64,000 nucleotides of DNA from contig CAVXLD010000014.1 in NCBI GenBank assembly GCA_963762565.1, forward strand, positions 64,001 through 128,000, read 5' to 3'. Origin of the DNA: an uncultured Verrucomicrobiae bacterium (lineage in GTDB: Bacteria; Verrucomicrobiota; Verrucomicrobiia; Chthoniobacterales; JAFAMB01). Below the pieces are notes generated by a model that saw only the letters and a list, made by a program, of their open reading frames with translations, was not told where the DNA came from and did no database searches. The number at the start of each line of letters is the position of its first letter. The stretch's first letter is position 1. Of the stretch, positions 8,728 through 63,406 are shown one piece after another. A program made the translations under genes and the position numbers.

Positions 8728-8857
8728 GAGGCGTGGCAAAAAAGTAATCGTAATAAGTACGTCAGTAATCAGTCCTGATACCCCGGGCTGGTTCAACCGG
8801 CTTCCGAAACTGATTACTGTTACACTGATTACTGATTACTTTTTGTGCCACGCCCTC
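8728..8857. repeat. Fold-back element with AGTAATC/GATTACT heptamer arms
   Basis: GAGGCGTGGCAAAAAAGTAATC... versus ...GATTACTGATTACTTTTTGTGCCACGCCCTC. Confidence 0.85.
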
Positions 8858-8924
8858 AGCCTCGGCCAAGCATGACGCTAGCCAGAATTCACGAGGAGTG
8901 GTAATATCACCATCGTTCGCTGCT

Positions 8925-9545
8925 ATGGAGTTCAAGGTCTGGGTATTGGCCAGCTTTCTGCTGGTAGGTTTCGGGTTGGCCGACGAGCCGAAGTCGGCAG
9001 CCTCTCCCTCCCTTTCATCCTCGCCGTCTCCGTTACCTTCGGCGACTCCAGCCATCACGGCTGCGGAACTCGAAACCCCTTTGCCGGAGGGGACTCCTCA
9101 GGAACAGCCTGCGACTGTACTTTTGCCGGAGCCTAACTTCTTGCCACCACCACCGCCTCAGACCGCTGGAAATGAGACGCCTTTTACCATGGCGTCGGCG
9201 GAGCCCAGACGCACGCCACAGGATGAGTCACATTTTAGAGAGATTAAGGACACTGCCATGGGTAGCGCCCGCGCCGGCTATCTACTGAAAGAAGCCAAGG
9301 GAGCGCTCAGCACCGAAGCTCGGAAGAATTTCATGCGAGCCTACTATTATACGGTTTGTGCCCAGATGCGGCGTCTCGATCCAAACCTGAGATCGCTGAT
9401 ACAAGCATACGAGGCGGAAGAGATTCAAAAAATTGCCGCGGAAGGCGGAAGGGAGCATGGGAAGACAAAAGCGCGTACGCATGCAGGTTTGGTTTCTCGA
9501 AGCTCGACCGCTAAGAAAAGGCGGCACCCGTATCGCGAATATTGA
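8925..9545 (+). CDS. Hypothetical secreted protein, Pro/Ser-rich linker
   Basis: Signal-like N-terminus from ATG 8925, low-complexity linker, helical C-terminal domain. Confidence 0.7.
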   Translation: MEFKVWVLASFLLVGFGLADEPKSAASPSLSSSPSPLPSATPAITAAELETPLPEGTPQEQPATVLLPEPNFLPPPPPQTAGNETPFTMASAEPRRTPQDESHFREIKDTAMGSARAGYLLKEAKGALSTEARKNFMRAYYYTVCAQMRRLDPNLRSLIQAYEAEEIQKIAAEGGREHGKTKARTHAGLVSRSSTAKKRRHPYREY

Positions 9546-9562
9546 GCGAGGGGTGGGCGCGA

Positions 9563-9800
9563 AATGGCGAGTGGGCGTGGTGGAGTGCGCTGGGCGCCGC
9601 GAACGGATAGGACCTATAGGACCAATAGGACTTATGGGACCAATGGGACGTGACGCATAGGTCTCATAAGTCGCACAAAGCCTGTCGCGCCGTAGGCTTG
9701 GCGAAGGCGGATCCATTCGTTCGCAGCGCCGAGCGCTTACACACACAGCCCATAGGCCCATAGGCCCATACGCCCATACGCCGACGCGCCCACACGCCAT
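9563..9800. repeat. Nested fold-back element: octamer (GCCCATAC/G) arms, nonamer (ATAGGACCA) tract, inner hairpin
   Basis: About five ATRGGACYW units from 9606, CCTGTCGCGCCGTAGGCTTGGCGAAGGCGGA at 9680, GCCCATAS octamers near 9747-9800. Confidence 0.8.
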
Positions 9801-10343
9801 TCACTCTCCCAGGTGTTTTACCAGTGCCACCCGGGCTACAGGAGCTCGATTCAGGGACTCAATTAAGTGGCGAGAACTTTCGCCTTGTTTCGTCATTTGC
9901 ATTCCCAGCAATCGGGCGAGTTCGGCCTCAAAAAAAACAATCACTCGCAACGTTGGACGTTTACCTTCCAGATAGGTCAAGCCGCGGCGCAGCAGATCGT
10001 AAATCTCCGGTTCAGCGTGCTCGAGCTCTGTCGTTTCTTCAACCAGCTCGGTAAAATAAGCTGCAGTCAGCGTACTGAGATAGTTCGTCCGAATGTTTAA
10101 GAACGGCTCAACTACCACTAGTTCGCGGAGCGTGTGGATTTCGCTCTTTCGAGATCGAGAGATAGTTAGGTTACAGTGGAAGAACAAATCGATTTTACCG
10201 GCGAATGCGCTCCCGGAGCGGAGAGCGCCTTTTGCGATTGCCTTTATCTTGCCGGTTTCTTGACCGAACCAAGTCAAAATAAGGCTGGTCTCTGAGAAAC
10301 GGATCCGCCGGAGGAGAATGGCGTTTACCGTTTCTGTGGACAT
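9801..10343 (-). CDS. recO: DNA repair protein RecO
   Basis: AILLRRIRFSETSLILTWF..GKIKAIAKGALR N-terminal OB-fold motif. Confidence 0.92.
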   Translation of the reverse strand: MSTETVNAILLRRIRFSETSLILTWFGQETGKIKAIAKGALRSGSAFAGKIDLFFHCNLTISRSRKSEIHTLRELVVVEPFLNIRTNYLSTLTAAYFTELVEETTELEHAEPEIYDLLRRGLTYLEGKRPTLRVIVFFEAELARLLGMQMTKQGESSRHLIESLNRAPVARVALVKHLGE

Positions 10344-10359
10344 GGCTGACGGGGGAGGG

Positions 10360-10550
10360 AAGGTGAAAGGTGAAAGGTGATTGGTGATTGGTGATTGGTG
10401 ATTGGTGATTGGTGATTGGTGATTGGTGATTGACGGACAGTCGAAGGCCCCCAGGTAAGCAAGTCAAAATCGAAGCGCGTTTTTGCCACGCCCGTCGCGA
10501 CCAATCACCAATCACCAATCACTTCTCACTTCTCACTTCTCACTTCTCAC
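10360..10550. repeat. Fold-back element with GGTGATT/AATCACC heptamer arms
   Basis: (GGTGATT)8 at 10376-10431, ~69-bp core, (CCAATCA)3(CTTCTCA)4 at 10501-10549 overlapping the lpdA stop. Confidence 0.95.
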
Positions 10551-11957: not shown

Positions 11958-12001
11958 AAACATCTTTAGCTGAAACCTGCCGATGAGCAAGGCGGTGGGG
12001 A

Positions 12002-12184
12002 GAGAGAGGTGATTGGTGATTAGTGATTGGTGATTGGTGGAGCACGGCTCCTACATAATGAAGCACTCGGAAGGTCCATGCCCTCTTAGGTCCGTTTTTG
12101 GCATTATTATTGTGTTGGTGGTAGCTGGTTGGAATGCAACATCCGGTCTGGGCTACCAATCACCAATCACCAATCACCTCTCAC
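12002..12184. repeat. Fold-back element with GGTGATT/AATCACC arms
   Basis: Four GGTGATT-type units from 12008; (ACCAATC)3 plus CTCTCAC at 12155-12184. Confidence 0.92.
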
Positions 12185-13989
12185 TAATTCGCTGCTGCCG
12201 GCGTTGTCGTTTTGTTGAGCGCGCGCAGGTCATACACCTTGCCCCACTGACCTTCCGCAGCGACTGGATAACTGTCCCACGAATGAGCCGTGGCCGGATA
12301 ATGTTCCTGTTCGAATTGGCCCCAGAACAAGTAATCGATCTTTAGTTGGGTGCAGAGTGGTTCCCAGCCCGGCTGTGCTAGCATCACTTTGTTCAGGAGT
12401 CCTTCCTCTGACCGATATTCAAGACCATGACTCCAAAGGTGACCTGGGAACCCTAAAACAACTCGATGACCCGCGACCAGCGCCGGGTGATTGTAGGTGG
12501 GGTAAATGGCGAATACGGCTTCGGGAGGAAAGCCCTTGAGGGCGTCGTCGACCTGCGTCCATTCGACCTGGTTACCGATCGCGTATCCATGTTCGTCATC
12601 CGGCGCCAACCCGCCTACTAAGCTGATGAAGCCGGAAAAGAAAAGCAGGAAGAAGAATGGCAAACGGATCAGCGGATGCCATCGACTGAGGAACATTTCC
12701 CAGATGGCCGCCATCATCAGCATATAAGCCCAGAAAAAGAGCTTGGTATTATCCCAGTCCCAAGGAGCAAAGCGGACGAATGCGCACAGAATAAACATTG
12801 CCAGTGCCGGAAGCAGAATCTGCCGCATTCTGAACCGAGTCCGCCACACGTCGATGCCTCTGGGAAAACACAGGTAAACGAGCAGAACGATTGCTAGCGG
12901 GAGTACAAACCCAAAATTCAGTAGCCAGACCATTGGTGCTTGAGCTCCGTGCGGCAATTGACGAAACCACCAAAGTTTGTGCCAGTATTCATGCGCCTCG
13001 GCCACTGAAGTCCAACCAGGTTCCCAAGCCAAGGCATTGGTTTTGCCGAACCCGGTAACACCATAAACAAAAAATGTTGCCGGGATAAACGAAAACGTCA
13101 CTAACCGGATCAGATGGCCGCGCCAGTTTGGATTCCCAAACAGGAACCACCAGAGCAATAGGAACGACAGAAAGATAAATGTATGCAGATGAAAAAGCGG
13201 CATCGTGCAATACAGCAGCCATTCCCCCCAAAAAGAGAGATGCGGTCGATCGGTCTGCGAATCTAGCGTCCGTCGCCAGTGGGTGATCAAGATTAATCCC
13301 GCCGGGATCGCATATAGCAATCCGCGCTGAGTAACGAAAAGAGCCAGGGGGATCGATTTCCAAGCGATATCAGCCTGATAGTCCTCGAGATGCCACGGCC
13401 ATGACTGGAAAAACATGAAACCAACCAGCCCGCCATTGAATAGAAAAGCGGCAACTGCAAACGGGCCGCCGAAAAGAAAAAGAGCTCGCACTGTCAGCAG
13501 CGAGCCGAGAAACGCCACCAGAATAATTCCCAAGTTCGGTGAAATGCCGATTAACTTCAGCTCCGCGTTGAATATGTCGATACCGATCGGGTAGCGGAGC
13601 TTATCAAACGCGTAGATTGGATTTTCCGGCCAATAGTGTGGATTCGATGCCAGAAAATTGATTTGGGTGAGGTGCAGACAGATGTCGCCCAGATTGTTGG
13701 GCGAAAGGACTTTGACGTTTCCGTCCTCGATAAAGATCACCTGACTAAAGGCTCGGACGGCGAAGACCAAAAACAGGATGGCGAGGAGAACGCCGCTTGC
13801 TTGGATCTTCTCCAGACGGGTCAGCATTTGTCCGGGACTCACCAAAACCGCGATTAAGACTACGACCAAGCTGAGACCTAATGACAGGGCTGCGGTCCAT
13901 GGCACCAGTCCATAAGGTGAATATCCGAAACCGACGCCGAGCGAAGTCGATAGGGCTATCCAGGTGAGGAAAAGCAGCGAGATCTTCAT
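12184..13989 (-). CDS. Polytopic membrane protein, possible GT-C-fold glycosyltransferase
   Basis: 601 aa, >10 TM segments, NNLGDICLH loop; overlaps the upstream gene by 4 bp (translational coupling). Confidence 0.65.
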   Translation of the reverse strand: MKISLLFLTWIALSTSLGVGFGYSPYGLVPWTAALSLGLSLVVVLIAVLVSPGQMLTRLEKIQASGVLLAILFLVFAVRAFSQVIFIEDGNVKVLSPNNLGDICLHLTQINFLASNPHYWPENPIYAFDKLRYPIGIDIFNAELKLIGISPNLGIILVAFLGSLLTVRALFLFGGPFAVAAFLFNGGLVGFMFFQSWPWHLEDYQADIAWKSIPLALFVTQRGLLYAIPAGLILITHWRRTLDSQTDRPHLSFWGEWLLYCTMPLFHLHTFIFLSFLLLWWFLFGNPNWRGHLIRLVTFSFIPATFFVYGVTGFGKTNALAWEPGWTSVAEAHEYWHKLWWFRQLPHGAQAPMVWLLNFGFVLPLAIVLLVYLCFPRGIDVWRTRFRMRQILLPALAMFILCAFVRFAPWDWDNTKLFFWAYMLMMAAIWEMFLSRWHPLIRLPFFFLLFFSGFISLVGGLAPDDEHGYAIGNQVEWTQVDDALKGFPPEAVFAIYPTYNHPALVAGHRVVLGFPGHLWSHGLEYRSEEGLLNKVMLAQPGWEPLCTQLKIDYLFWGQFEQEHYPATAHSWDSYPVAAEGQWGKVYDLRALNKTTTPAAAN

Positions 13990-16720: not shown

Positions 16721-16723
16721 GGG

Positions 16724-17093
16724 GGGCGAAACGGCGAGTGGGCGAAACGGCGAATGGGCGAATGGGCGAAACGGCGACGCTACCCTTGATCGGTAGGGCG
16801 AAAATCTCGGCGCGAATTCCGGTTGCTACGTGGCCGGCTCAACCGCGCCGGATTTGAGCCATGCGTGCGGATGACCTCGCCCAAGACGTTGTTGATTTAA
16901 GGCAATTCCGAATCAAGGCCATTTGTCCGCCCAGGGTGCGGCTCAAATCCGGCGCGGGAAATCGGCAGACGAAAAGACGTCCGCGGCGCGCCGAGATTTT
17001 CGCCCTACCGAACGGGGGACAATGTCGCCGCTTCGCCCTTTCGCCCCATCGCCCCGTCGCCCCATCGCCCTTTCGCCCCCTTCGCCCTTTCGC
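16724..17093. repeat. Nested fold-back element: GGCGAA(T/A)N octamer arms around a GTAG-REP doublet
   Basis: Perfect 24-bp IR 16791-16814/16987-17010; 18-bp IR 16843-16860/16940-16957; octamer tracts outside. Confidence 0.92.
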
Positions 17094-19042: not shown

Positions 19043-19144
19043 GAATGACAGATGACAGATGACAAATCACAAATGACAAATATGATCCTTACGGGAAACC
19101 TGGGCGGCGAATATTTGTCATCTGTCATTTGTCATTTGTCATTC
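19043..19144. repeat. Fold-back element with ATGACA(A/G)/(T/C)TGTCAT heptamer arms
   Basis: Five left units and four right units around a ~30-bp core. Confidence 0.92.
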
Positions 19145-19391: not shown

Positions 19392-19666
19392 AGTAATCAG
19401 TAATCAGTAATCACTAATCAGTAACCAGTTTAGGAGCTGGGAGCTAGAATCTAGGAGCCAGGAGGGCGGCGCATGCGGACTTGGCGAATTGTCCGCTGGT
19501 CTCGATTGCTAGGCGTAGCGAACACCCACTGCTTCGACTCCTCGCTTCCGTTACAATTGTGCGCCCCTGATGCTGGAGACATACGTGCCTTGCGCGCATC
19601 CTCCTAGCTCCTAGATTCTAGCTCCCAGCTCCTACACTGATTACTGACCCACTGATTACTGATTAC
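19392..19666. repeat. Nested fold-back element: outer AGTAATC arms, inner GGAGCTA arms
   Basis: Inner 34/35-bp IR 19431-19465/19600-19634 inside AGTAATC/GATTACT tracts. Confidence 0.93.
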
Positions 19667-22740: not shown

Positions 22741-23072
22741 AATCGTAATCGTCCTCGTCGTTGAATGAAGGGCCCAGTGGCCCCCCTTGCCCAGCGCTCG
22801 GAGGGGAGCCGCTTTGTAGGTCAGCAGATCTGTAATATTGCAGCAGGCGGCTCCCGGGAAGGGCAGAGGGTTTAGCACGCTACCTGATGAGGTGTAATCT
22901 AATCCACCGGCGAAAACCCCTCGGTAAGAGCTTGGCGCTGGGTAATTCCCGGGAGCCGCCTGTCAGCAACAGATAGAACTACCACGCGATAAAGCGGCTC
23001 CCCTCCGCACGCTGGGTGGGCGATACCGTTGCGGCCTTCTTTTCGAGGACGAGGACAACGACGAGAACGATT
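22741..23072. repeat. Large nested inverted repeat with TCGTCC/GACGAG hexamer arms and GGAG-REP-like doublet
   Basis: 24/26-bp IR near 22790-22815/22991-23016; 17-bp IR CAGGCGGCTCCCGGGAA/TTCCCGGGAGCCGCCTG. Confidence 0.85.
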
Positions 23073-27065: not shown

Positions 27066-27151
27066 GGAGGCGTTCAAGGGTATTCAGGGACCGGCCACTG
27101 TCAATGCAAACGCACCGATCGGTTGGCCGTGCGCTCACGGGAACAAACAAA

Positions 27152-27262
27152 AGTAAGCAGTAAGAAGTGTTTGGTGTCTTCCGAGAGAGACCGTAGCATT
27201 TTGCCGGCCAGTCACTGCTTACTGCTTACTTCTTACTGCTTACTTGCTTACTGCTTACTGCT
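27152..27262. repeat. Fold-back element with TAAGCAG/CTGCTTA heptamer arms
   Basis: AGTAAGCAGTAAGAAGTG on the left; about seven CTGCTTA units on the right. Confidence 0.9.
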
Positions 27263-28385: not shown

Positions 28386-28407
28386 GAATAGCGAGCAGAC
28401 CACCGAC

Positions 28408-28472
28408 AACTTAAAACTTATAACCTATAACCTAAAACTTATAAACTTATAACTTATAACTTATAACTTCTA
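28408..28472. repeat. Tandem AACTTAT heptamer tract (about nine degenerate units)
   Basis: Fills most of the spacer between the two lpxD genes; no inverted partner. Confidence 0.9.
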
Positions 28473-29570
28473 ACCTTTGAGCTGTTGCAGCTCTTTCTGC
28501 AAATCTTCAACGGCCTTCTGCAGCTCCTTCAATTGGCGTTGCATTGTTGGGAGGCGTTTCAGCTGTACCTGGCGTTCCAGGAACTCTCGCAGAGGCACTG
28601 CCGGGGTTGAACCGACTGCTTGTTTGGCCGGCACATTCCCGGCCACACCGGCTTGGGCCCAAATCACTGCGTCATCGCCGACCGCCATGTGGTCCGGCAG
28701 ACCGGATTGTCCGCCCATCACCACGCGGTCACCAACCTTTGAGCTGCCTGCGAGGCCAGCCAACCCTGCGATCAAGCAGTTTCGTCCGATCGTCACATTG
28801 TGACCGACCTGAACCAGGTTATCGAGCTTGCTTCCGCTGCCGATGCGGGTCTCGCCCAAGGTACCTCGATCGATGCAAGCGCCTGCACCGATCTCGACGT
28901 GATCTTCGATGACCACGTTCCCGATCGAATTGACCCGGACGATCTCGTAATTAAAACTGGTAACCTCGGTTTTCTTATTTGGCCTGACCGACTCGACGCT
29001 CCCGGGTTCCGGCGTCACAAAGGAAAAACCGTCACCGCCGACCGTCGCGTTCGGTTGGATTATGACGTGGTTGCCAATCTCACAACGATCACCGACGAAG
29101 ACGCCAGCATGGAGGAGAGTCTGGTTTCCGATGCTGACCTCAGCGCCGATGCTCACGTTGCTGATCAGGCGGCATCCGGTTCCAATCACGGTATTTGGCC
29201 CGATCCAGCAATGTGGACCGATACTGGTGTTGGCGCCGATCTTTGCGGTCGGATCGATCACCGCGCTGGGATGGATACCCTCGGTCGAATAAGCGGGGCG
29301 TTCGAACAATTCGAGAAGGCGAGCCAGTGCCAGGCGCGGTCTTGGCACCAGAACAAAGTTCGGGACATCGACCGGCCCAAGCTCTGCCGGGACCACCGCA
29401 TTCATTACCTGATTCTGTTTGAGGAGCTCGATAACGCTCCCGGAAAGGACGAGAGCTAAATCTTGCGGGCCACGAACCAGAGCCGGGTGGACCACCCTGG
29501 TAATCGCAACATCGGTATCTCCGCGGAGCTCACCATCTAAGTACTTCGCGATTTGGCCCAAGGTTTTCAT
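28470..29570 (-). CDS. lpxD: UDP-3-O-acyl-glucosamine N-acyltransferase (paralog 1)
   Basis: Hexapeptide repeats, GGDGFSF, IDRGT, KLDNLVQVGHNV. Confidence 0.94.
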   Translation of the reverse strand: MKTLGQIAKYLDGELRGDTDVAITRVVHPALVRGPQDLALVLSGSVIELLKQNQVMNAVVPAELGPVDVPNFVLVPRPRLALARLLELFERPAYSTEGIHPSAVIDPTAKIGANTSIGPHCWIGPNTVIGTGCRLISNVSIGAEVSIGNQTLLHAGVFVGDRCEIGNHVIIQPNATVGGDGFSFVTPEPGSVESVRPNKKTEVTSFNYEIVRVNSIGNVVIEDHVEIGAGACIDRGTLGETRIGSGSKLDNLVQVGHNVTIGRNCLIAGLAGLAGSSKVGDRVVMGGQSGLPDHMAVGDDAVIWAQAGVAGNVPAKQAVGSTPAVPLREFLERQVQLKRLPTMQRQLKELQKAVEDLQKELQQLKG

Positions 29571-29624: not shown

Positions 29625-29704
29625 GGGGGCGTCGCCATTACTCCAATACTCCCGCCCGCAACGCTTCGCGTAGCGATGCGGGCGGGCCGACGCTCCATCA
29701 CTCC
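29625..29704. repeat. ATTACTCC-type octamer arm interrupted by a 37-bp palindromic element
   Basis: 29648-29684 is identical to 46127-46163. Confidence 0.8.
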
Positions 29705-30620: not shown

Positions 30621-30929
30621 GTGAGAAGTGAGATGTGAGAGGTGATTGGTTTGGTGGGGCGAGGCTCCCGAAAGAGCTAACAATCGGTCCGAAGTGCTCT
30701 GCGTTCCGACGCTCTATTGTTTGTGGGGCTCATTCGCGCGCCGAGCCGGTCCCTCGACGTGGCAACTCCAGGGCCCGGCTCCCCACGCGTTTCGGTGTCG
30801 TGGACGAAAGAGCAACGGTAGGTCGAATCTTTTTGGGCAGCATTTCTGCACTTTCGGGAGCCTCGCCCCACCAAATTAGGCCCCCTCGCCCCACCTCTCA
30901 CTTCTCACTTCTCACCAATCACTTCTCAC
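30621..30929. repeat. Nested fold-back element: GTGAGAA/TTCTCAC arms around a GTGG-REP doublet
   Basis: Perfect 25-bp IR 30650-30674/30851-30875 inside heptamer tracts. Confidence 0.93.
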
Positions 30930-31336
30930 TGCCTGGTCAGTCCCAACACTCCTTCAAACTCGTTCTTCGAAAGCGACATGACTGAGAGCCGGCCCTGGCG
31001 CAACAAAGGGATTTGGGCGAGCGCCGGATCGGATTTTATTTTCTCCAACGTGACCGGCGGATTAACTGGTCGCACCGGTTTGATCTCGACAGCCGACCAG
31101 TCTCCGCTCGTGGCAGTCGGATCTGGGAAAGCTTCTCGACTCACCACTGCAATGCCGACTACGGCTTTACCATTTACGCTGTGATAGTAAAGGACTTGGT
31201 CACCGGCCTTCATGGAACGAAGGTTGTTTCGAGCTTGGAAATTGCGGACGCCCGTCCAATCCGTCTTGCCATCCACCACAAACTGGTCCCAGGAATAGGC
31301 AGTGGGTTCTTGCTTAACCAGCCAGTATTGACTCAT
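30926..31336 (-). CDS. EVE-domain protein
   Basis: YWLVKQEP, WTGVRNFQARNNL, LYYHS, RLSV. Confidence 0.95.
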   Translation of the reverse strand: MSQYWLVKQEPTAYSWDQFVVDGKTDWTGVRNFQARNNLRSMKAGDQVLYYHSVNGKAVVGIAVVSREAFPDPTATSGDWSAVEIKPVRPVNPPVTLEKIKSDPALAQIPLLRQGRLSVMSLSKNEFEGVLGLTRQ

Positions 31337-32028: not shown

Positions 32029-32974
32029 AGCGCTTCACTATCTGGTTCGGGCGAAGGACGGCGGCCGCTTGCCTCATTCGTATCTCATTACGGGTCCGGA
32101 AGGCTCAGGCAAACGAGACTTGGCCCGAAGATTCTTTGCTGAATTAAATGAAACCGCCGCGGTAGAAACGCATCCGGACTATCATTTGGTCGAGCCGGAA
32201 TCGAAGTCTCGCCGGATTTTGGTGGAACAGATCCGGGAACTCGAAGATTCGCTGCGGATGAAATCGAGCGTCGGAGGTTGGAAGTTTGGGGTCATTATCG
32301 ATGCCGACCGGATGATGCCGCAGGCGAGCAATGCGTTCCTCAAAACGCTGGAGGAACCGCCGAGCAAATCGATCCTTCTGCTGTTGACCGCTGTTCCTGA
32401 GGCATTGTTGGAGACCGTTCAATCTCGTTGCATCCGGATCTCACTGCGGCTGCCCGGTGGGCCCCGTCTGGATCCAACGGGCGATAGTCTGCTGTCTGCT
32501 GTCGCTCGCGTCTGTCGAGAACGACCCGACACGATTGCCGGAGCGTTGACTCTGGCCCGCGTATTCCAAGATCATCTTCAACAGATCCGAGCCGCGATTG
32601 AATCTGAGCACGAGGAGAAACTGGGTGAGGAAACGGAGGCCTACCGGGACAGGACGGACGGCCGTTGGCTCGAACGAGAAGAAGACCGGTTACTCGTCCT
32701 TACTGAAAGCCGCTACGTGAAAGCGCGCTCCCGCTTGGTCGACCGCCTCATGGAGTGGTTCGCTGACGCGGTGCGTCTTAGGAATGGCGCTGAAAGCGCC
32801 GTCTCCGTTACGGAGGAACTCCAGCAATTCGCCAAGCATTACTCCATCCCCGAGCTACTAAGGCGTTACCGGGCTTTGGTCGACCTCCAGGAGAACTTTT
32901 CCAGAAATATCCAGGAAGCCCTGGCCATTGAGGTGGCCTTTATTGAGGCGTTTGGACCGGCCGGGGAAAGGTGA
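32009..32974 (+). CDS. holB: DNA polymerase III subunit delta-prime
   Basis: HSYLITGPEGSGK, NAFLKTLEEPP, TVQSRC; follows tmk. Confidence 0.93.
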   Translation: MPFLVDEALHYLVRAKDGGRLPHSYLITGPEGSGKRDLARRFFAELNETAAVETHPDYHLVEPESKSRRILVEQIRELEDSLRMKSSVGGWKFGVIIDADRMMPQASNAFLKTLEEPPSKSILLLLTAVPEALLETVQSRCIRISLRLPGGPRLDPTGDSLLSAVARVCRERPDTIAGALTLARVFQDHLQQIRAAIESEHEEKLGEETEAYRDRTDGRWLEREEDRLLVLTESRYVKARSRLVDRLMEWFADAVRLRNGAESAVSVTEELQQFAKHYSIPELLRRYRALVDLQENFSRNIQEALAIEVAFIEAFGPAGER

Positions 32975-33169
32975 AAGTGATTGGTGATTGGTGATTCGTG
33001 ATTGGTAAGGTGAGGCTTACGAACAGCCGTTAAGGCTCTTGCGCAGCGCTGCAAACAGCTGAAAAAGGGATAAAAGGTGCGAGGCTCCGCGAAGTGAGCG
33101 AGGCTAATCCGCGAGGGTATTAGGGCGGCCCTCCCAATCACCAATCACTAATCACCAATCACTTCTCAC
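32970..33169. repeat. Fold-back element with GGTGATT/AATCACC arms
   Basis: Left arm starts in the holB stop codon; right arm 33134-33169. Confidence 0.92.
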
Positions 33170-34378: not shown

Positions 34379-34507
34379 GGTGATTGGTGATTAGTGATTG
34401 GTGGTAGGGCGGGGGCCAACTTCAGTTCGTTGGACAATTGTATCCTAGCGCCGCAGCCAGAGCCGGGGCAGCGGCCAACCAATCACCATTCACTAATCAC
34501 CAATCAC
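34379..34507. repeat. Fold-back element with GGTGATT/AATCACC arms
   Basis: Three left units and four right units around a ~75-bp core. Confidence 0.9.
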
Positions 34508-38776: not shown

Positions 38777-39005
38777 GGCGTCGTCTTATACTCCGCCTGG
38801 AGCTAGGAGCTAGAATCTAGGAGCTAGGAGAGGGCCGTGGGTGTGCTGAACCGATTGGACTCACTTGGGGAGGTATGTGTCAGATCATATCGGTCCCATC
38901 CGATCGCAGCGCCCAGCACGTGCTATCACCCTGAGACGCCATTATGTCTAGCCGCCCCCTCCTAGCTCCTAGATTCTAGCTCCTGCGGAGTATAAGACGA
39001 CGCCC
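38776..39005. repeat. Fold-back element with GGAGCTA arms and perfect 21-bp terminal IR
   Basis: GGGCGTCGTCTTATACTCCGC 38776-38796 / GCGGAGTATAAGACGACGCCC 38985-39005; lies between convergent genes. Confidence 0.93.
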
Positions 39006-42630: not shown

Positions 42631-42725
42631 AAGCAGTAAGCGGTAAGCGGTAAGCAGTAAGCGGTGGGTCAGTATTCAGGCCGGGTTCCCGGTTTCCGAA
42701 GACTGCTTACTGCTTACCGCTTACT
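42631..42725. repeat. Fold-back element with TAAGC(A/G)G/C(T/C)GCTTA arms
   Basis: Four to five left units and three right units. Confidence 0.9.
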
Positions 42726-42936
42726 ATTCTTTCTGGCGAGACGGCTATTTCTGCGATTGATTTCGTAGATCCTCCCTCTCAACATCCAGTTTTGGGGGAC
42801 GGGCGTACTTGAACGCCGACACACGAATGTGTTACCGATGTCTTGAAATCCCTCCTATCGCCCCAGTCCTAACCCGATCCAGCGCGATCCTCTCACTTCT
42901 CACCAATCACCTCTCACCTCTCACGCCTTCGGTAAA

Positions 42937-44327: not shown

Positions 44328-44334
44328 CGTGGAA

Positions 44335-44529
44335 AAGTGATTGGTGATTCGTGATTGGTGATTGGTGAAAAGACAGTGTTCCTCGGCGATTTGTTAGTGA
44401 ATTGGCCCTCGACCCTGTCAGCTCAATCATATCGGCCTTATCCTAAACATCCCCGTCCGCAAGGTATCGCTTCCGGGCGCCTTCCACCAATCACCAATCA
44501 CTAATCACCAATCACCAATCACCTTTCAC
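44335..44529. repeat. Fold-back element with GGTGATT/AATCACC arms
   Basis: Four left units; five right units plus CCTTTCAC. Confidence 0.93.
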
Positions 44530-45717: not shown

Positions 45718-45870
45718 AATGACAAATTACAAATGACAGATGACAAATCGAGGGTGCATAACGCCGAAAACGCGCGCCATGGTCCTCGATTCTAAATTCT
45801 CAAAATCCGCAACCCCGAATTCCTCAATCGGTCATTTGTCATCTGTCATTTGTCATCTGTCATTTGTCAT
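45718..45870. repeat. Fold-back element with ATGACA arms
   Basis: Four left and six right units; core similar to that of 46043-46213. Confidence 0.92.
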
Positions 45871-45884: not shown

Positions 45885-46046
45885 ATGCCTCAATCCGACC
45901 TATCAAGAACTCCGGAGAACCGGGAGATCAAACAGATCTCGACTTTGCCGACCGGCGAGATCGTCGCCCTTTGTACCGATAGCACGGTCTGGATCTACGC
46001 CGGCAGCAATTGGCGGAAACTGCCAGACCTGGGCGAAGCGCCATGA
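45885..46046 (+). CDS. Small hypothetical protein (53 aa), absent from the ORF track
   Basis: MPQSDLSRTPENREIKQISTLPTGEIVALCTDSTVWIYAGSNWRKLPDLGEAP*; fills the gap between two repeat elements. Confidence 0.55.
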   Translation: MPQSDLSRTPENREIKQISTLPTGEIVALCTDSTVWIYAGSNWRKLPDLGEAP

Positions 46047-46213
46047 CAGATGACAAAATGACAGATGACAGATCGCGGCCGCCTAGCGCCGAGAACAGTG
46101 AAATGGCCACGATTGCAAATTCTCGAACTCCCGCCCGCAACGCTTCGCGTAGCGATGCGGGCGCGGCCTTGAACTCCTGCAACTCCTCAATCTGTCATTT
46201 GTCATTTGTCATT
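46043..46213. repeat. Fold-back element with ATGACA arms and inserted 37-bp palindrome
   Basis: Arms at 46043-46072 and 46191-46213; insert 46127-46163. Confidence 0.92.
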
Positions 46214-48044: not shown

Positions 48045-48047
48045 ATG

Positions 48048-48071
48048 ATATATAGTATAAAAACTATATAT
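48048..48071. promoter_or_regulatory. Candidate operator palindrome between divergent transposase and AbrB genes
   Basis: ATATATAGT-N6-ACTATATAT perfect inverted repeat containing -10-like hexamers. Confidence 0.55.
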
Positions 48072-48132
48072 TTGCACCGCTTTTTTTCGCTCTCTTTCTT
48101 GCTCTTTAGAGCGTTAGACTTCTTTCCTAACC

Positions 48133-48324: not shown

Positions 48325-48421
48325 CTCCTTATCTTGACGCCTATGGGCAGCTGCCGGACGCGGACGCGATCCCTCCCCCAGCGTTTCCCCGCGTCCCACA
48401 TTTGCGTCGCTTTGCTATCTG

Positions 48422-48724
48422 CTATTTGCTATTCATTCTCTCCGCGAGCCACGCGAAGGCGTCTCTCTGCATCTCTTTATCGAACTTGTGTGGGCCGTCA
48501 TAAAACTGTCCAACAGACCAGGATATCTCTTCACCAGCCAACCCATCCCGTTTCCAGCTGGTTTCTATCCTGACGTCCTCCGCCGCGGGGTTAGAACTGC
48601 TAAATCCGAGAATCTTACGGATTCGTTGCCTCGTCTCTTCGCCAGGCGAGGCCGCAGGGTACAAGTCCGCTTGTTTTTTCGCGGCCTCAACCCAATCACT
48701 ATAAATCCCGAGATGAGTTCTCAT
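48422..48724 (-). pseudogene. Internally deleted alpha/beta hydrolase (acetylxylan esterase/dienelactone hydrolase-like)
   Basis: N-terminal segment ending EEISWSVG joined directly to C-terminal FYDGPHKFDKEMQ..AFAWL; no nucleophile region. Confidence 0.6.
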
Positions 48725-48740: not shown

Positions 48741-48916
48741 AATCACAAATGACAGATTACAGATGACAAATTGCTGAACTGTATCGATTCTTAGAACTTC
48801 GTTGGTTGAAACGCACGGTTTCGCTCGCCTCGCGCCCTGGCATAAAGAGCCTTCTTGGACTCCTGCAACTCCTCGAACTCCTCAATTTGTCATCTGTCAT
48901 CTGTCATTTGTCATTT
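48741..48916. repeat. Fold-back element with ATGACA arms and GAACTCC/CAACTCC tract
   Basis: Four left and four right units. Confidence 0.9.
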
Positions 48917-53395: not shown

Positions 53396-53548
53396 ATCCG
53401 CAGATTTCGCAGATTACGCAGATTACGGTTTCAGCTTCTAGTCACACGAAAAGGTAAAACAGAACGCTGGAGGCCACGAACGATGTTTCTATCCCTGGCT
53501 AAACTCACCCCTTAATCGAAATCTGCGTAATCTGCGTAATCTGCGGAT
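53396..53548. repeat. Fold-back element with CGCAGATTA/TAATCTGCG nonamer arms
   Basis: Three units per arm, between convergent genes. Confidence 0.93.
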
Positions 53549-54577: not shown

Positions 54578-54630
54578 GACTGATTACTGACCTACTGCTT
54601 ACCGCTTACTGCTTACTGCTTACTGACCAC
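54578..54630. repeat. Solo CTGCTTA/CTGATTA heptamer arm
   Basis: About seven units directly after the stop of the AlkZ-like gene. Confidence 0.85.
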
Positions 54631-55700: not shown

Positions 55701-55737
55701 CGGGTACCCAGCTCTGTCATCTGTCATTTGTTATTTG

Positions 55738-56851
55738 TCATTCGCCTTGGTTGCCACAATTCGCCGCAACCCAGACAAAGAAAGCGTGCATGGTTCGTTC
55801 CAATTCCAACCTCCAGAGCCAGCGCATCCGTTCTCGGTCGTCAGATTTAATACACCATTCGGTGACCGTATAGAGGCCTTGTGCAATGCATAACTTATAG
55901 TCAGCAATTAGTTGACCCCAATCATAGCCACTCACTCCGTTGGCTAGCAGTTGCCGGTGATACTCTCGTAAGACGGACATCTCCAGATCTCGTCTCAACT
56001 CCGTGTCCCAATATTGCACCATTAAATACGACAAATCACTTACTCCAAGCCAAGTGGTGAGCGACCACGTAAACGGTTGCCGATCCAGGAAACAGACTTT
56101 TCCTTCCTTAATCGGATAGAGGATGTTCCCCGGGTTAATATCTCCGTGGACGATGGTAAATCCGATGGTGTCCTTGGCCCTTTCCAACATTTTGCCTGGA
56201 TGATATTCGAAGATATCGAGGATCGCCTGCCGCCAGGAATCGGATATATCCGTCCGCGTTGCAACCAATAGTGAACTCAAGCCTTGTCTGACATGTCCGA
56301 TATATTGGTCGAGTTTCGACTTTTCCGGTATACGTCCTTTCAGTTGATGGATCTGTTCTTCGCCCCAGGCAAAAGCATGCGATCGTGCTAAAGCGGCCGC
56401 GCCACAGTCCAAATTCCAGATTTAGCTTAGTGTCTTTCTCGTGGGTATCGGACAGATCTTCCATTAAGATCGAATAGGAACCATCGTCGGCAGCGTGCGC
56501 AGCGTAGCAGTTTGGTATCGGCGCATCGGCGAGGCGGAGGTAATCTCGAGCGTAGTAATTAACCTCTGAGTCGTTTACAAACCCAGTGCCGGCTTCGACG
56601 GTTTTCAATATTAAGGATTGCGGAGGTTCACCTTGGGTGCCGCCGCCGTATCCGATCCGGATCCGCGTGATGTGCGAGTTGGTGCTGGCTGAAGAGCCAA
56701 TGGCAATATTGCGTATCTCACCTGACGTTAGCGCTCCATTCCGTTTCAAGAGCGCAGTCAGCCAAACTTTATCGATTTGGTTCGGGGGAGGGGTGGGTTC
56801 GTCAAATGGCACAATGAACGTCAGGTTGACGGGTTCGGAGTGTCGAATCAA
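55738..56851 (-). pseudogene. Frameshifted aminoglycoside-phosphotransferase/ecdysteroid-kinase-like gene
   Basis: EVNYY and ILMEDL in one frame; HGDINPGN and FLDRQ in another; shift near 56410. Confidence 0.82.
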
Positions 56852-58913: not shown

Positions 58914-58981
58914 CGTGTCGTAGAAATATATCCCAATTAACCCTTTGCGGTCAGCATCCAAAAGGCGAGGAAGCAGGTTTA

Positions 58982-59205
58982 AGCCTCGCGCAAAGGACGC
59001 GGAGGACGCAACGGATTATTCTTTTAGTCAAGTTCGGCCGGACGGTTTGCCAGTCGTTTAATGCCGTTCTTAAGATGTTCCTCGCCAAAGTTGATTAGGT
59101 ATCCGAGACGCAAGTTCGACCCGGTTGTAGCAACCGTCCACCTGAGCCTCAATCCACATTATCTCCTTGCCTTCCGTCGCGTCCTCCGGTCCTCTGCGCG
59201 AGGCT
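58982..59205. mobile_element. Nonamer-armed element enclosing a GxxExxY gene remnant
   Basis: ~34-bp imperfect IR 58982-59015/59173-59205 built of GAGGACGC(G/A)-like units. Confidence 0.75.
59024..59119 (-). pseudogene. C-terminal remnant of a GxxExxY-family (PD-(D/E)XK-like) protein
   Basis: Minus strand reads SNLRLGYLINFGEEHLKNGIKRLANRPAELD*; AGGAGA and an out-of-frame ATG lie ~40 bp upstream. Confidence 0.8.
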
Positions 59206-59251
59206 CTGTTTCCTCCCTTAGCTCCTGTTCAAGAGATTGTACCCTTCCTGA

Positions 59252-59617: not shown

Positions 59618-59800
59618 GAATCCTGCCGTGATTGTTCGTCTATACTTGACGTGCTTTGTCTGGCACTTGGTCTCAAAATTCTAGCCGGCGTTTCACTTTC
59701 TCGGCCAGGCGATTCTCCCAGAGTTTTCTCTAAGGTCTGACGCGCCACGAATGTCGGCGGTTACCCAAGCGTACTGGCTCTCGACTCGTTAGTGGCCGGT

Positions 59801-60543: not shown

Positions 60544-60794
60544 CCGCTTGCAAACATATGCAGCTGGGTTCGACCGTAACTGACAAGAGCCAGTAAAAAA
60601 GCAACTTTTAGGCCCCGCGTCTGATCGGATTTTGGAGCGTTTTTCTGGAGGCCGGTCTATTCCTCAACCAACGCGCCATTAAAAATCGATCCAGTGTCCT
60701 GCCCCATAACTAACAGGGCCTTCGTTGCGATCAGAATGGGCCGTCGGCAAGGCACGAGGAGCGGAGCATACGAAGAAGGTAACTCTCGCGAGGG

Positions 60795-60904
60795 GGCTTG
60801 GCGTTCCCCAAGATAACGCGAAAGCGCGGGAGTGGTATCAGAAGACCGCCAACAGGGGCCAGACGGATGCCAAGCAAGCGCTCGGGCGCTCGCAATCAAA
60901 ATAA
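60795..60904 (+). pseudogene. Remnant 3' end of a Sel1-repeat gene paralog
   Basis: Aligns with 61946-62047 (DNAKAREWYQK..G.TDA.QALGR). Confidence 0.75.
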
Positions 60905-61075
60905 GACCTCTCCCCCGCAGGTGATTTCAGCTAATTGCTAGTGTGGCTATGCATTAACCAGGAGAGGTGAACGAAATTCTCTTTGCAAGTGGAGATGCGA
61001 AGGCGCGTCCTTTTGATGCCGCAGAGAGAGAATTCACTCAGCGCTTCGTTTACAAGTGGAAAAGAAAAAGAGTTC

Positions 61076-62047
61076 ATGAACAAAAACCCCATTCACCTTT
61101 TGATTAAGATTTCCGTAGCTGCGGCGTTTTTGGCGGGTTGTAGCAAAACCCCAACCGAGATGTTCAACCTGGGCCTGCGGTATGATATTGGCCAAGGCGT
61201 CGCCCAAGATTACTCCAAGGCATTTGAGTGGTACGGGAAGGCAGCCGGTGCTGGCAGCAAGGATGCCATGAATAACATAGGCACTCTCTATGAGAAGGGT
61301 CATGGTGTGGCCCAGGATTACACCGAGGCGCTCGAGTGGTATCAGAAAGCAGCCAGTGCGGGCGACACGACTGCGATGATCAACTTGGGCTCGCTCTACC
61401 TGAACGGCGATGGCGTCGCCCAGGATTATGCTACGGCGCTCGATTGGTTCCAGAAGGCAGCAAGCGGTGGCAATGCGATTGGGATGTTCAGCGTGGGTGT
61501 GCTTTATGAGCAGGGCCACGGTGTGGCCCAAGATCACGCCAAGGCATTCGAGTGGTTCCAAAAGGCGGCGGCAGGTGGCTATGCACTCGCCATGTTCAAT
61601 TTAGGAGTGCATTATGATACCGGCCGAGGCGTCCCTCGAGATTACGCGAAGGCGTTCGAGTGGTACCAAAAAGGGGCCGAGAGAGGCGAAGTGTTGGCCA
61701 CGTATAACCTGGCCATGGACTATCAAGAGGGAGAGGGCGTCACCAAAGATTACTCTAAAGCGCGACATTGGTTTGAAAAAGCAGCTGCCGGCGGCAACGC
61801 CGACGCCATGACCTCCTTGGGCGGACTCTACATGAACGGCAGGGGGGTTGACCAAAATTACGGCAAAGCATGCGTGTGGTACCAAAAAGCAGCAGCAGGC
61901 GGGAACACGGTCGCCATGTTTAACCTTGGCTTGGTGTATGAGAAGGGCCTTGGCGTCGCGAAAGATAACGCGAAAGCCCGGGAGTGGTACCAGAAGGCCG
62001 CTGATGGTGGCGATACGGATGCCAGGCAAGCGCTCGGGCGCTTGTAA
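61076..62047 (+). CDS. Sel1-repeat lipoprotein
   Basis: Lipobox LAGC; eight 36-aa Sel1 repeats (NLG..Y..G.GV.QDY.KA.EWY.KAA). Confidence 0.93.
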   Translation: MNKNPIHLLIKISVAAAFLAGCSKTPTEMFNLGLRYDIGQGVAQDYSKAFEWYGKAAGAGSKDAMNNIGTLYEKGHGVAQDYTEALEWYQKAASAGDTTAMINLGSLYLNGDGVAQDYATALDWFQKAASGGNAIGMFSVGVLYEQGHGVAQDHAKAFEWFQKAAAGGYALAMFNLGVHYDTGRGVPRDYAKAFEWYQKGAERGEVLATYNLAMDYQEGEGVTKDYSKARHWFEKAAAGGNADAMTSLGGLYMNGRGVDQNYGKACVWYQKAAAGGNTVAMFNLGLVYEKGLGVAKDNAKAREWYQKAADGGDTDARQALGRL

Positions 62048-62149
62048 AGCGCCACGGTGATCAGTCAGCATTAACCAGCTAGGCCAGCGGCACTGTCGTT
62101 GCAGCGGCCGAATCCATCACTAATGAGGTAGTCGGAACATTGTCTCCTG

Positions 62150-63118
62150 CTAAAGCGGGATCCGCTCGTCCTCGATATGCGCCTGGATAATTTCGTCGAA
62201 GTTTGTTTCCGCTTCGAACCCCAGTGAACGAGCACGAGACGCATCAAGATTGCGGGCCCATCCTTCGACGATCTTCATAATCGTAGAGTCTGGTTGACGA
62301 CGAATCAGCCGCACCCGTTCCTCGCCGGCACACCGCTTCAGGCTTTCAATCATTTCACCTACTGTAGAGGAAAGCCCCGGCATCGAAAGTGTCCGCCTTG
62401 GACCGACCAGTTTTCCGTCGATTTCAGCCGCCCGAAAGAAAAAGCCCACCGCCGACCGCGGAGATGCAAACCAGTGCCGCACTGTATCCGGGACAGGCAA
62501 AATTGCTTCTTGTCCGTTCAATGGCTCCCGAATGATGCTCGAGAAAAAGCCGGATGCGGCCCGATTCGGTTTACCGGGTCGAACACAAATTGTCGGTAAC
62601 CGAATCCCAATGCCGTCAAAGAAGCCTTTCCTTGTGTAATCGGCCAATAGCAATTCGCCAATCGCTTTTTGCCCGCCGTACGAGGTGAGGGGAGTCGAAA
62701 AAAATTCTTCGTTAATAACCTCCGGAAACGGCGCTCCAAATACCGCGATGGAACTCGTGAAAACAACCCGAGGCTGATACTCCGCATGGCGAATGGCCTC
62801 AAACAAGTATCTGGTACCGTCGACGTTGATTCTGTACCCCTTATCAAAATCCATTTCGGCTTCGCCGGATACAACGGCGGCAGTATGCAGGATTATACCC
62901 GGACGGTCGGCAATCAGTTTTTCTGCGACCCCAGGATTGGCTAAGTCACACGCAACCGACCGGATGGGAAAATGGCTGCCCGCGATTGGCGCGGGGTCGA
63001 CGATATCGGCCATCATCAGACTTTCGACCTTCTTCCCAGCGATCGACCCGACGGCAACCAGTTTTTCGCAAAATTTACGACCCAGCATCCCTGCAGCCCC
63101 AGTGACTAGTACTTTCAT
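62150..63118 (-). CDS. denD: D-erythronate dehydrogenase (extended SDR)
   Basis: GAAGMLG, AAVVSGEAE, YGGQK, RPGKPNRAASGFFS.I.REPL. Confidence 0.9.
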   Translation of the reverse strand: MKVLVTGAAGMLGRKFCEKLVAVGSIAGKKVESLMMADIVDPAPIAGSHFPIRSVACDLANPGVAEKLIADRPGIILHTAAVVSGEAEMDFDKGYRINVDGTRYLFEAIRHAEYQPRVVFTSSIAVFGAPFPEVINEEFFSTPLTSYGGQKAIGELLLADYTRKGFFDGIGIRLPTICVRPGKPNRAASGFFSSIIREPLNGQEAILPVPDTVRHWFASPRSAVGFFFRAAEIDGKLVGPRRTLSMPGLSSTVGEMIESLKRCAGEERVRLIRRQPDSTIMKIVEGWARNLDASRARSLGFEAETNFDEIIQAHIEDERIPL

Positions 63119-63128
63119 GGATGGCTAA

Positions 63129-63406
63129 AGCCTCACACAAAGAGGCGCAAAGGGAAAGAGTCGGTAGGGCGAGGCTCCGGCGTGCCTGAGAGGGGTCGCA
63201 GCGCGGAATCGCATTTCATTGATATATGCCACCCAACGCCTGAAAGCTGCCGAGCCGGGGGTTGCGCCAGCCACGGCTCGGCAGCTCTTAGTCGGTGCCC
63301 GCCATATACCGACGAAACGTCATCTCACCCTGCGATCCCCTCCGGTTTTTTGGGAGCCTCGCCCTACCAAACTCCCCTTTGTGCCTTTGTGTCTTTGTGT
63401 GAGACT
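63129..63406. repeat. Nested fold-back element: CACAAAGAG/CTTTGTG nonamer arms around a GTAG-REP doublet
   Basis: GGTAGGGCGAGGCTCC 63163-63178 / GGAGCCTCGCCCTACC 63353-63368; central AGCTGCCGAGCCG/CGGCTCGGCAGCT hairpin. Confidence 0.9.

Follow-up and report, generated by a model that had tools for sequence, protein, structure and literature searches.

Repeat-armed elements between the genes of the window

In the window, a stretch of 64,000 nucleotides from an uncultured Verrucomicrobiae bacterium of soil, the spacers between genes hold elements in which a tandem array of a short unit is followed, beyond a core, by its reverse complement. This arrangement was present at 22/22 positions listed by the first-pass annotation, with local self-alignment giving stems of 18-138 columns at 71-100% identity and, derived from these stems, element lengths of 91-359 bp. 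The arm consensus is a tandem array with fixed core letters and free spacer positions. An Rfam search of the window gave no match, and the flanks are protein-coding genes, the site not lying inside a 23S rRNA.

The heptamer element at 8720..8865 belongs to a family (the 8728 family) cognate to four-helix-bundle (FHB) genes, which recurs at 27151..27262, at 42631..42725 and as a shell at 19392..19666 that precedes a pseudouridine synthase gene. Nested within this shell is an element of the 38776 family (19426..19639, listed earlier at 19431), the namesake of which lies in the speA-PBP1A spacer (38776..39005). The FHB-cognate 10360 family occupies the recO-lpdA spacer (10360..10550), 12001..12185, where the outer end overlaps a host stop codon, 32971..33169, where the first unit supplies the holB stop codon and a decayed outer arm of the 8728 family follows, 34379..34507 after pgl, and 44332..44527; a sister family is found at 30621..30930. 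Elements of the 19043 family lie after sufT (19044..19143, with the same unit as the heptamers of the Coxiella intervening sequence, IVS) and at 45718..45870, 46043..46213 and 48741..48916. In addition, there are an FHB-cognate octamer element (16722..17093), an FHB-cognate hexamer element (22741..23070), and two GxxExxY-cognate elements with three units per arm, a nonamer at 53396..53548 and an octamer at 63129..63406. REP-type palindromes are nested in the cores of the elements at 16722 (16724 in the earlier list), 22741, 30621 and 63129.

Two of the earlier assignments were revised: 9563..9800, described as an octamer element, is rather a worn composite, in which an octamer shell (3′ arm at 9748-9798) surrounds a nonamer arm (9607-9649) whose family flanks TIGR04258 FHB-suffix genes, and the 63129 element, described as a nonamer, is mainly octamer. 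The nonamer element at 58982..59205, on the minus strand, derives by internal deletion from the GxxExxY cassette at G000:C11:163273-163894, to which it corresponds in two blocks (86% and 79% identity) with ~310 bp missing between them; it retains a C-terminal remnant of the GxxExxY (PF13366) gene (59033..59119, minus strand; 86% amino-acid identity, E = 3e-10). The window also holds unpaired arms at 28408..28477 (heptamer, between two lpxD genes), 42889..42924 (3′ arm, 30621 family), 48411..48433 (3′ heptamer arm), 54579..54625 (3′ arm, 8728 family), 55713..55741 (3′ arm, 19043 family) and 56921.

A genome-wide survey sorted 2789 arrays into 29 families derived from the data. Where another array of the same family followed within 400 bp, the nearest one was inverted in 523 cases and direct in 12, compared with 37.5 ± 5.7 inverted pairs (maximum 58) in 200 label shuffles; the pairing claimed earlier is thus far above random but not universal, with inverted pairing at up to 600 bp detected for 1078/2789 arrays. 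Arm polarity is constant within each family, but the proposed placement of the purine-rich arm at the 5′ side fails as a general rule: the hexamer family of 22741, that element included, puts the pyrimidine-rich arm first in 49/49 pairs, and in two heptamer families missing from the earlier list the 5′ units are only 43% purine. Similarly, a start near a stop codon holds as a tendency for one end, while the other end lies farther, from a start codon (by crude gene calls, the median distance is 12 bp to a stop, from 353 ends, and 65 bp to a start, from 287 ends). Host stop codons fall inside an arm in 88/523 elements, which indicates that the elements shape gene ends. Paired elements alone occupy about 100 kb of 6.1 Mb, with a slight excess in convergent gaps (86/542 occupied, versus 53/556 divergent and 181/1580 co-directional).

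Cognate genes and the number of units per arm

Two of the four gene families proposed as enclosed partners are borne out: FHB genes (S23p/Avd-like) lie in such arms at 7/8 loci and GxxExxY genes at 12/12, as read by eye. The proposal did not hold for RAYT: by the same reading, 0/9 loci listed, of 12 Y1_Tnp matches in the genome, lay in tandem arms, and the RAYTs of the genome (G000) go with separate REPs of their own. Where a single ORF fills a compact arm pair, it belongs predominantly to the FHB or the GxxExxY family, the enclosed genes being assigned to PF05635 or PF13366. Transposase-like ORFs occur inside two long arm pairs among the 33 listed, without filling them, and no reverse transcriptase or DGR template/variable region was found inside the cassettes examined.

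Pairs of FHB genes with at least 80% identity share the repeat unit in 28/28 cases, as against 3/1056 below 50% identity, and for GxxExxY the unit is shared in 11/11 close versus 8/182 distant pairs; 13 of the 28 close FHB pairs also share flanks, the genomes compared being kin. At the locus G000:C11:16010, gene and arms have been replaced together, with G000, G003 and G005 carrying one FHB clade and one unit, and G002 and G004 the other clade and the other unit. Cassettes have the polarity of gene-less elements in 33/36 cases, three disagreeing. The cassette genes are under purifying selection (median dN/dS 0.07; 13 computable of 16 pairs) and are patchy across the family, being found in 26/30 and 21/30 genomes. 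Gene-less copies run into the hundreds, against one or two conserved sites for a cognate gene. For some abundant families, including those of 19043, 38776 and 16724, no intact cognate gene was found in the 94%-complete G000; at the site orthologous to 38776 in G005, a sister species, an intact FHB gene lies within the same arms. Covariation of gene and unit is of a kind that could arise from linkage alone.

Arm size is set by unit count and not by length: FHB arms have about five units, GxxExxY arms about three. The medians are 4.1-5.9 periods per arm for FHB-cognate 6-, 7-, 8- and 9-mers (11 of 23 families listed) and 2.7-3.0 for GxxExxY-cognate 8-, 9- and 10-mers, and across phyla they are 4.5 units for FHB (41/75 loci paired) and 2.9 for GxxExxY (27/92 paired). 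Exceptions to five are hexamer arms, which often have six cores, and some arms that are far longer; GxxExxY-type arms have sharp outer ends. Counts of about five and about three fit a pentamer and a self-associating nuclease, respectively. To our knowledge the FHB proteins have no catalytic activity or site; they match Xcc0516 (PDB 2gsc, five chains) with an E-value of 4e-17. They also resemble Avd of DGRs, which has a related fold (PF22296 match at E = 0.002, below its cut-off) and is described as a pentameric barrel binding an RNA of ~27-31 nt through all five protomers (PMC6182149; 10.1101/2023.10.23.563531, where the contacted element is 31 nt), although the Avd site, as given there, is not a tandem array.

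For GxxExxY proteins, the function of which is given as unknown in the available part of PMC3424549, E27, D67 and K79 are invariant and E77 is near-invariant, and the closest structures share a restriction-endonuclease-like fold (best Z 8.5, rmsd 3.3, 100 aligned, 3ijm, with many tied nucleases below). Sequence and model together thus present the fold, acidic residues and lysine of PD-(D/E)XK enzymes, marking the protein as a predicted nuclease. Modelled as three copies, the protein scored 0.42, precisely the pass mark, against 0.00 for the best control, the mark being reached by 20/30 solved pairs and 1/23 single chains and calibrated on two copies only. Runs agreed in at least 60% of contacts with partner pLDDT of at least 86, and the predicted interface is head-to-tail, in a model without a closed trimer.

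Spacer turnover and proposed mode of spread

Among 49 comparisons of the same spacer between sister species, 21 showed another family, 13 no array and 15 a shared family. For example, the 8720..8865 site holds the 8728 family in G002 and a GxxExxY-type octamer in G003 and G005; the 10360 site holds nested GxxExxY-type arms in G002, G003 and G005 and is a spacer of 40-48 bp in G017 and G009; the 16722 site has a hexamer family instead in G003, G004 and G005, the 27151 site an octamer family plus REP in G002-G005, and the 46043 site a different heptamer family in G004. The element at 48741 is absent at its site in G002, and that at 19044..19143 is retained in G002-G005 and absent in G001. Where the same family occupies orthologous sites, arms are 88% and cores 69% identical, compared with 53-54% at four-fold sites, and unit numbers differ by whole units among species and strains (one related strain contig is four units short at 45718). 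Copies crowd the same spacers near gene 3′ ends, nest, and substitute for one another. Their cores are filler, made up of deletion remnants, nested arms, REPs and drifted sequence; most contain no cassette remnant, and the matches to cassette interiors (25/395 cores) are nearly all nested arms.

A clean pair of orthologous sites, empty in one genome and filled in another, was not seen. No target duplication was found either, 32/424 flank pairs sharing at least 4 bp versus 26.8 expected, in a test that has duplications of <3 bp outside its reach and in which old copies may have lost theirs. Stem mismatches are equally of G.U type (343) and A.C type (334), and an arm resembles its partner hardly more than it does a random arm of its family, arms following the family pattern. 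The earlier reading is supported as to a non-autonomous element but not as to an RNA-structural one; its trans-acting enzyme of spread stays putative, FHB having no known catalytic activity.

At somewhat better than even odds (roughly 0.55), the window elements are gene-less members of at least 20 families of repeat-armed cassettes, each family with a small FHB or GxxExxY gene of its own, in which masters and non-autonomous copies are related as in REP/RAYT systems and the proteins are not transposases; binding of the arms and mobility of the elements are what we infer. The number of units per arm follows the gene type, which suggests that the encoded protein recognises and helps to spread its own repeats. 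Every unit of an arm would be a putative site bound by one subunit of the cognate oligomer, about five of them serving the FHB pentamer and about three a head-to-tail GxxExxY oligomer. The cognate protein would hold both arms and help the element to be copied, through cut-and-repair, into a hairpin that is already there; GxxExxY would make this cut itself, and FHB families would borrow an enzyme for it. The logic would remain that of master and passenger.

Whole gene-bearing cassettes could alternatively insert by horizontal transfer and recombination, gene-less elements being immobile remnants of gene deletion whose arms persist as harmless or mRNA-stabilising hairpins. Deletion derivatives do exist (58982, G000:C5:122416, C10:371505 and C13:1402), two loci (L070 and L085) have the gene in a sister species and same-family arms without it in G000, and, with four-fold identity at 54%, cores that are old and neutral could no longer be recognised. 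We nevertheless judge this unlikely, since it requires the gene to have inserted several hundred times, with about 20 loci surviving, whereas surviving genes stay put (intact at the same G000 site for 13/27 mapped sister-species cassettes), stems have no G.U bias and the pattern that arms fit is the family's, not that of the partner arm. Distinctly unlikely is a domesticated host network, in which cognate proteins bind the arms, as transcripts or DNA, and control mRNA processing, decay or chromosome organisation, with arms spreading slowly by gene conversion and not selfishly. The free change of family at a given spacer, the occurrence of elements between divergent genes and the patchy cassette genes all speak against it, in spite of genes that sit at fixed positions under strong purifying selection, arms conserved above neutral, the slight convergent-gap excess and the cutting of the Coxiella IVS stem by RNase III (PMC4990558).

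That the elements ride on REP/RAYT, with RAYT enzymes cutting and pasting REP doublets together with neighbouring arms, seems very improbable. REP-type palindromes lie inside four window elements, that in the 22741 core matching the flanks of the RAYT gene G000:C1:579877, and 27/395 cores match flanks of 7 RAYT genes in a genome with 12 Y1_Tnp matches; yet such matches are missing from most elements, none of the 9 RAYT loci listed lies within tandem arms, and the link of clade to unit and the five-versus-three rule would be left unexplained. In these cases the REPs lie inside the arms and thus look like later guests. We give hardly any credence to ordinary microsatellites that grow by slippage and invert by template switching with no protein partner: the whole-unit variation between species and strains would fit, but each family has a fixed polarity and modal copy number, conservation is position-specific, GxxExxY-type arms have sharp outer ends, and the reading is contradicted by the copy-number data and by the match of a single gene clade to each unit.

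Relation to known repeats and mobile elements

MITEs are short, non-autonomous intergenic elements with inverted ends and a variable core. The elements described here share with them terminal inverted repeats around a non-coding core, and differ in showing no target duplication and perhaps in lacking a DDE transposase enclosed by such ends. In REP/REPIN-RAYT systems, as outlined in PMC2817692, a gene is flanked by two inverted co-evolving repeats that are abundant elsewhere as gene-less doublets; a flanked co-evolving gene, orthologous gene positions between species and absence of target duplication are common to both, as far as that account extends. However, the arms here are tandem arrays, whereas REPs are short palindromes with a conserved tetranucleotide head, and the enclosed genes are FHB or PD-(D/E)XK and not HUH Y1 tyrosine transposases.

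The ORF-bearing 23S rRNA IVS of Coxiella burnetii shares the S23p gene family (PF05635/TIGR02436) with the master cassettes, not with the gene-less window copies. Its terminal stem is reported to measure 28 bp, and its ORF to be preceded by three to four heptamers in tandem (PMC4990558); rotated, these heptamers correspond to the unit of the 19043 family, and terminal inverted repeats of heptamers occur in both. In contrast, the cassettes here lie between protein-coding genes, form many families, carry GxxExxY as well and have hundreds of gene-less copies.

The first-pass annotation knew of no paired multi-family design in the nearest described classes, cyanobacterial STRRs and REP/REPIN elements. 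The paired design is already published for one Xanthomonas family, with intergenic heptamer arrays forming convergent inverted pairs in 70-75 cases (PMC4692102), so the pairing itself is not new. The Xanthomonas and Nostoc arrays of that paper are presented as one family per genome and as G-quadruplex formers, compared with many families here; its main text contains neither '23S' nor 'helix', and its available parts report no link to mobile elements. Heptamer repeats of Beggiatoaceae are described as abundant intergenic direct arrays with no partner gene in the portion available of PMC4679880. Our literature search found single pieces published (the Coxiella IVS and the Xanthomonas heptamer pairs) and no paper on the whole system.

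More tentatively, and somewhat short of an even chance, these cassettes may constitute a separate class of selfish elements, in which a small oligomeric protein would count and bind a tandem array, a pentamer on five units and a nuclease oligomer on three, and copy gene-less elements into existing hairpins without transposase or target duplication; rRNA IVSs with S23p and much of the unexplained surplus of heptamers in bacterial genomes would then be special cases, and Avd a borrowed component. PF05635 and PF13366, widespread families without known function, would gain a specific candidate substrate in their own flanking arms, with the numerical prediction of five versus three units irrespective of unit length. 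The S23p-bearing rRNA intervening sequences would be placed in a much larger family, and there would be a candidate cause for the surplus of 6-10-mer arrays long noted in bacterial spacers.

Cyanobacterial STRRs are abundant intergenic heptamer arrays, described as direct and without a partner gene. Paired arms are present at two cyanobacterial FHB loci (L235 and L245), and some cyanobacterial STRRs may therefore belong to this system.

Paired arrays and their placement

Dispersed fold-back elements had been proposed at 22 positions in the window by the first-pass annotation, and a tandem array of a short unit (the arm), a core and the reverse-complement array were found at all 22. Genome-wide, TRF returned 3136 arrays with periods of 6-10, and 2789 of these were assigned to 29 families, which are computed clusters with some sister units merged and a few arrays mis-assigned (e.g. 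one nonamer family). The next array of the same family within 400 bp was inverted in 523 cases and direct in 12, compared with 37.5 +/- 5.7 inverted in label shuffles, showing that arms pair far more often than random placement gives; the excess of inverted pairs was also seen when arrays were split by period. The element system is real. Because only 1078 of the 2789 arrays lie in a detected pair, worn single arms are common.

Polarity is nearly fixed within each family. The purine-rich arm, proposed to lie always 5' in heptamer elements, does not come first in all families, and purine-first is rejected as a universal rule. The suggested proximity to stop codons agrees with a median element-to-stop distance of 12 bp (crude gene calls), and of the 8 most frequent heptamer families, 7 have a stop triplet in the outward 5-prime arm and 2 have one in the other arm. 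Elements occupy 86/542 convergent, 181/1580 co-directional and 53/556 divergent gaps, again on crude gene calls. A search of the window against Rfam gave no match. At the site of the 12002 element, sister species G004 (L041) has a 1176-bp spacer with a duplicated, triply nested element.

Cognate genes, repeat units and arm size

Profile searches of the host genome (G000) matched TIGR02436 (four-helix-bundle, FHB) 9 times at 8 loci, TIGR04256 (GxxExxY, a PD-(D/E)XK nuclease) 14 times at 12 loci, and Y1_Tnp 12 times. Read by eye, 7 of the 8 FHB loci and all 12 GxxExxY loci lie inside inverted arms of dispersed families, as the first-pass annotation had suggested for both genes, and the eighth FHB locus has a complete nonamer element directly upstream. 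RAYT, its third suggested partner, is ruled out as an enclosed gene, as none of the 9 Y1_Tnp loci shown (of 12) lies within tandem arms; most of those shown carry their own REP-type palindromes. Open reading frames were contained in 33 arm pairs 250-2500 bp apart, those of 450-760 bp being mostly FHB or GxxExxY. In the interval from left arm to start codon, this genome's genes of all three kinds (FHB, GxxExxY and RAYT) contain an AT-rich stretch resembling an internal promoter.

Over its full length, element 58982 aligns with the two ends of one cassette (arms enclosing an FHB or GxxExxY gene), the one at C11:163273-163894, with ~310 bp deleted, and window 59033-59119 (-) encodes a GxxExxY C-terminus; C5:122416 is a similar deletion derivative. 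At 38776, an intact FHB gene lies within matching arms in sister species G005. In relatives, TIGR04258 FHB-suffix genes have the nonamer of window 9607 at their flanks, and the unit of the 19043 family is a rotation of the heptamer preceding Coxiella S23p. Several large families are without an intact cognate gene in the host assembly, and an intact cognate gene for the 38776 and 16724 families is present in sister species.

The link between gene clade and repeat unit was followed in 30 genomes of the bacterial family, in a subset of matches comprising 69 distinct FHB and 59 GxxExxY genes, with both arms found by TRF at 49 and 22, respectively. At identities of at least 80%, 65-80%, 50-65% and below 50%, the unit was shared by 28/28, 24/49, 12/43 and 3/1056 FHB pairs and by 11/11, 7/12, 1/26 and 8/182 GxxExxY pairs (the GxxExxY tree being a quick one); these pairs are not independent, and flanks are common to 13 of the 28 close FHB pairs. 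The strongest single case is the swap at G000:C11:16010, where, between the same host genes, three species have one FHB clade with one unit and two have another clade with another unit. Genes at shared sites are under purifying selection, with dN/dS ~0.07 in the 13 of 16 pairs that were computable. Among 52 gene-bearing loci of sister species, 27 mapped onto the host genome, which there has 13 intact genes, 3 frameshifted genes, 1 deletion remnant, 5 sites with arms only and 5 with no array, 2 of the latter being REP-filled. The GxxExxY gene at G000:C15:24328-24674 is frameshifted in the host and intact at the same site in G002, G003 and G005. The FHB gene at G000:C3:44257-44848 is broken by a ~216-bp insert with its frame still open (197 aa), and this insert recurs in the cores of elements C3:125758 and C7:221237.

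Arm size is a count of units, not a length. FHB-cognate arms have medians of 4.1-4.8 periods (28-42 bp) whether their units are hexamers, heptamers, octamers or nonamers, corresponding to about five motif cores, with one small octamer family at 5.9 periods. In GxxExxY-cognate arms, built of octamers, nonamers or decamers, the medians are 2.7-3.0 periods (23-27 bp), and the outer ends are sharp. Since both classes include octamers and nonamers, the count cannot be put down to unit length. Core letters of the arms are conserved and spacer letters variable. Across many phyla, paired arms were present at 41/75 FHB loci (median 4.5; 5 direct pairs) and 27/92 GxxExxY loci (median 2.9; 10 direct pairs), in samples found from single-protein queries; a single clade dominates each family's sample, to which 28 GxxExxY loci at phylum level were added. 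The FHB cassette at G000:C7:440889-441842 has very long octamer arms, of 27 and 22 units compared with the usual five.

FHB is related to Xcc0516, whose solved structure has five chains, and two reports describe Avd as a pentamer with all five protomers touching a 31-nt RNA element (PMC6182149; 10.1101/2023.10.23.563531). For GxxExxY, a restriction-endonuclease-like domain was modelled confidently from the alignment, with conserved catalytic residues; a sequence search against solved structures gave no significant match. A three-copy model with a head-to-tail interface scored 0.42 against 0.00 for the best control, narrowly past a pass mark that was calibrated on two copies and reached by 20/30 solved pairs and 1/23 single chains, which supports self-association rather than a closed trimer.

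Turnover at orthologous sites

Four sister species were compared, at ~82-85% gene identity and 54% at four-fold sites. Spacers with an array in the window held the same family in 15/49 cases, another family in 21/49 and none in 13/49; array-less window spacers faced an array in 2/63 (2/40 for gaps of at least 50 bp), both at a single site with an orphan arm in the window. At sites picked for a common family, arms are 88% and cores 69% identical. Another family's array is held by 79 of 535 shells, 84 of 101 lying on the side expected of nesting, mostly in one order (e.g. 12 to 0 and 7 to 0). Nesting and family exchange together therefore mark these spacers as hot spots in which one element comes to lie inside another or takes its place. 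Strain contigs from four runs show a 28-base loss of whole units at 45827 and, in all four, a 36-base skip at 29650-29687. The skipped bases are a palindromic piece, similar to one in the 46043 core and one near 9690. In three strain contigs the resemblance to the window ends at element edges, which only hints at replacement.

Among 395 cores, 164 are unique, 174 carry dispersed repeats and 10 have few hits, which fall within a called gene; capture of fragments of called genes is rejected as their origin. Long REP-type palindromes lie at window 16790-17020, 30655-30875, 63170-63365 and 42028, with 92-541 genomic blast hits; they are often nested in tandem arms and replace tandem-arm elements at several sister-species sites. 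The window spacer at 9545-9801 holds only a worn composite element where sister species (L042, L043, L044) have an extra, permease-looking gene of ~1.4 kb.

Origin of the elements and genomic setting

We favor, at a probability of roughly 0.55, a reading in which the arms are arrays of candidate sites bound by the cognate oligomer; a master gene kept in the genome would, through cut-and-repair, seed gene-less copies into hairpins already present near the ends of genes. The data establish the anatomy of the elements, the gene-unit link, selection on the genes and the turnover at sites directly, and the binding, the cutting and the route of copying are inferred. It is unlikely that the elements are instead remnants of whole-cassette insertions; the 58982 deletion derivative is what this would produce. 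Recognisable gene remnants in cores are few, and target duplications were not found above chance at element flanks. A domesticated regulatory network is somewhat less probable still. The earlier suggestion of an RNA-structural element is not borne out, since stems show no G.U excess (343 vs 334 over 9044 columns in 181 elements), and RNA-level selection on them is rejected.

Hitchhiking on RAYT, compatible with the nested REP-type palindromes, is improbable given that none of the 9 Y1_Tnp loci shown lies within tandem arms. Plain microsatellites, in which unit numbers would shift by whole units as at 45827 in the strain contigs, are the least credible source. Chance-level pairing with mere unit-number drift, which would have contradicted the first-pass proposal, is not what was observed: families are exchanged at orthologous spacers, and arms enclose a gene family. 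Arm-to-arm copying is ruled out, as an arm's own partner falls at the 0.41-0.64 percentile of same-family arms in 12 families, in which no strong mirroring between partners was found.

The elements resemble REP-RAYT systems in layout but lack defining traits of REPs; they also lack defining traits of MITEs, and of rRNA intervening sequences (IVS), with which, in Coxiella, they share gene and arms. Earlier reports describe the Coxiella IVS (PMC4990558), paired heptamers in Xanthomonas (PMC4692102) and co-evolution of REP and RAYT (PMC2817692), list the function of PF13366 as unknown (PMC3424549), and mention FHB genes or heptamers without an arm-gene link (PMC3936711, PMC8700078, PMC4679880). 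No description joining IVS, paired heptamers and a REP-RAYT-like layout was found in a search that covered little of the subscription literature. Three results come from this analysis: arms of five versus three units whatever the length of the unit, a map of gene clades to units within one genus, and negative outcomes for RNA-level selection and for target duplication.

The host genome (6.1 Mb, 54% GC, 94% complete) has near-identical DNA in soil metagenomes from several studies, and the closest named records for a sister-species query were Chthoniobacterales. Gene content of the window (G000:C14:64001-128000) is ordinary housekeeping (recO, lpdA, sufT, secA, lpxD, holB, speA, trmD). Two tandem lpxD paralogues at 27291-29570 have an unpaired heptamer arm between them, a layout common to the sister species. 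An IS4-family transposase lies at 46785-48077 (-), with no match at that site in the sister-species search. Elsewhere, an open reading frame with a YADD motif (G000:C7:607267-607908) resembles a fragment of a group II intron reverse transcriptase.
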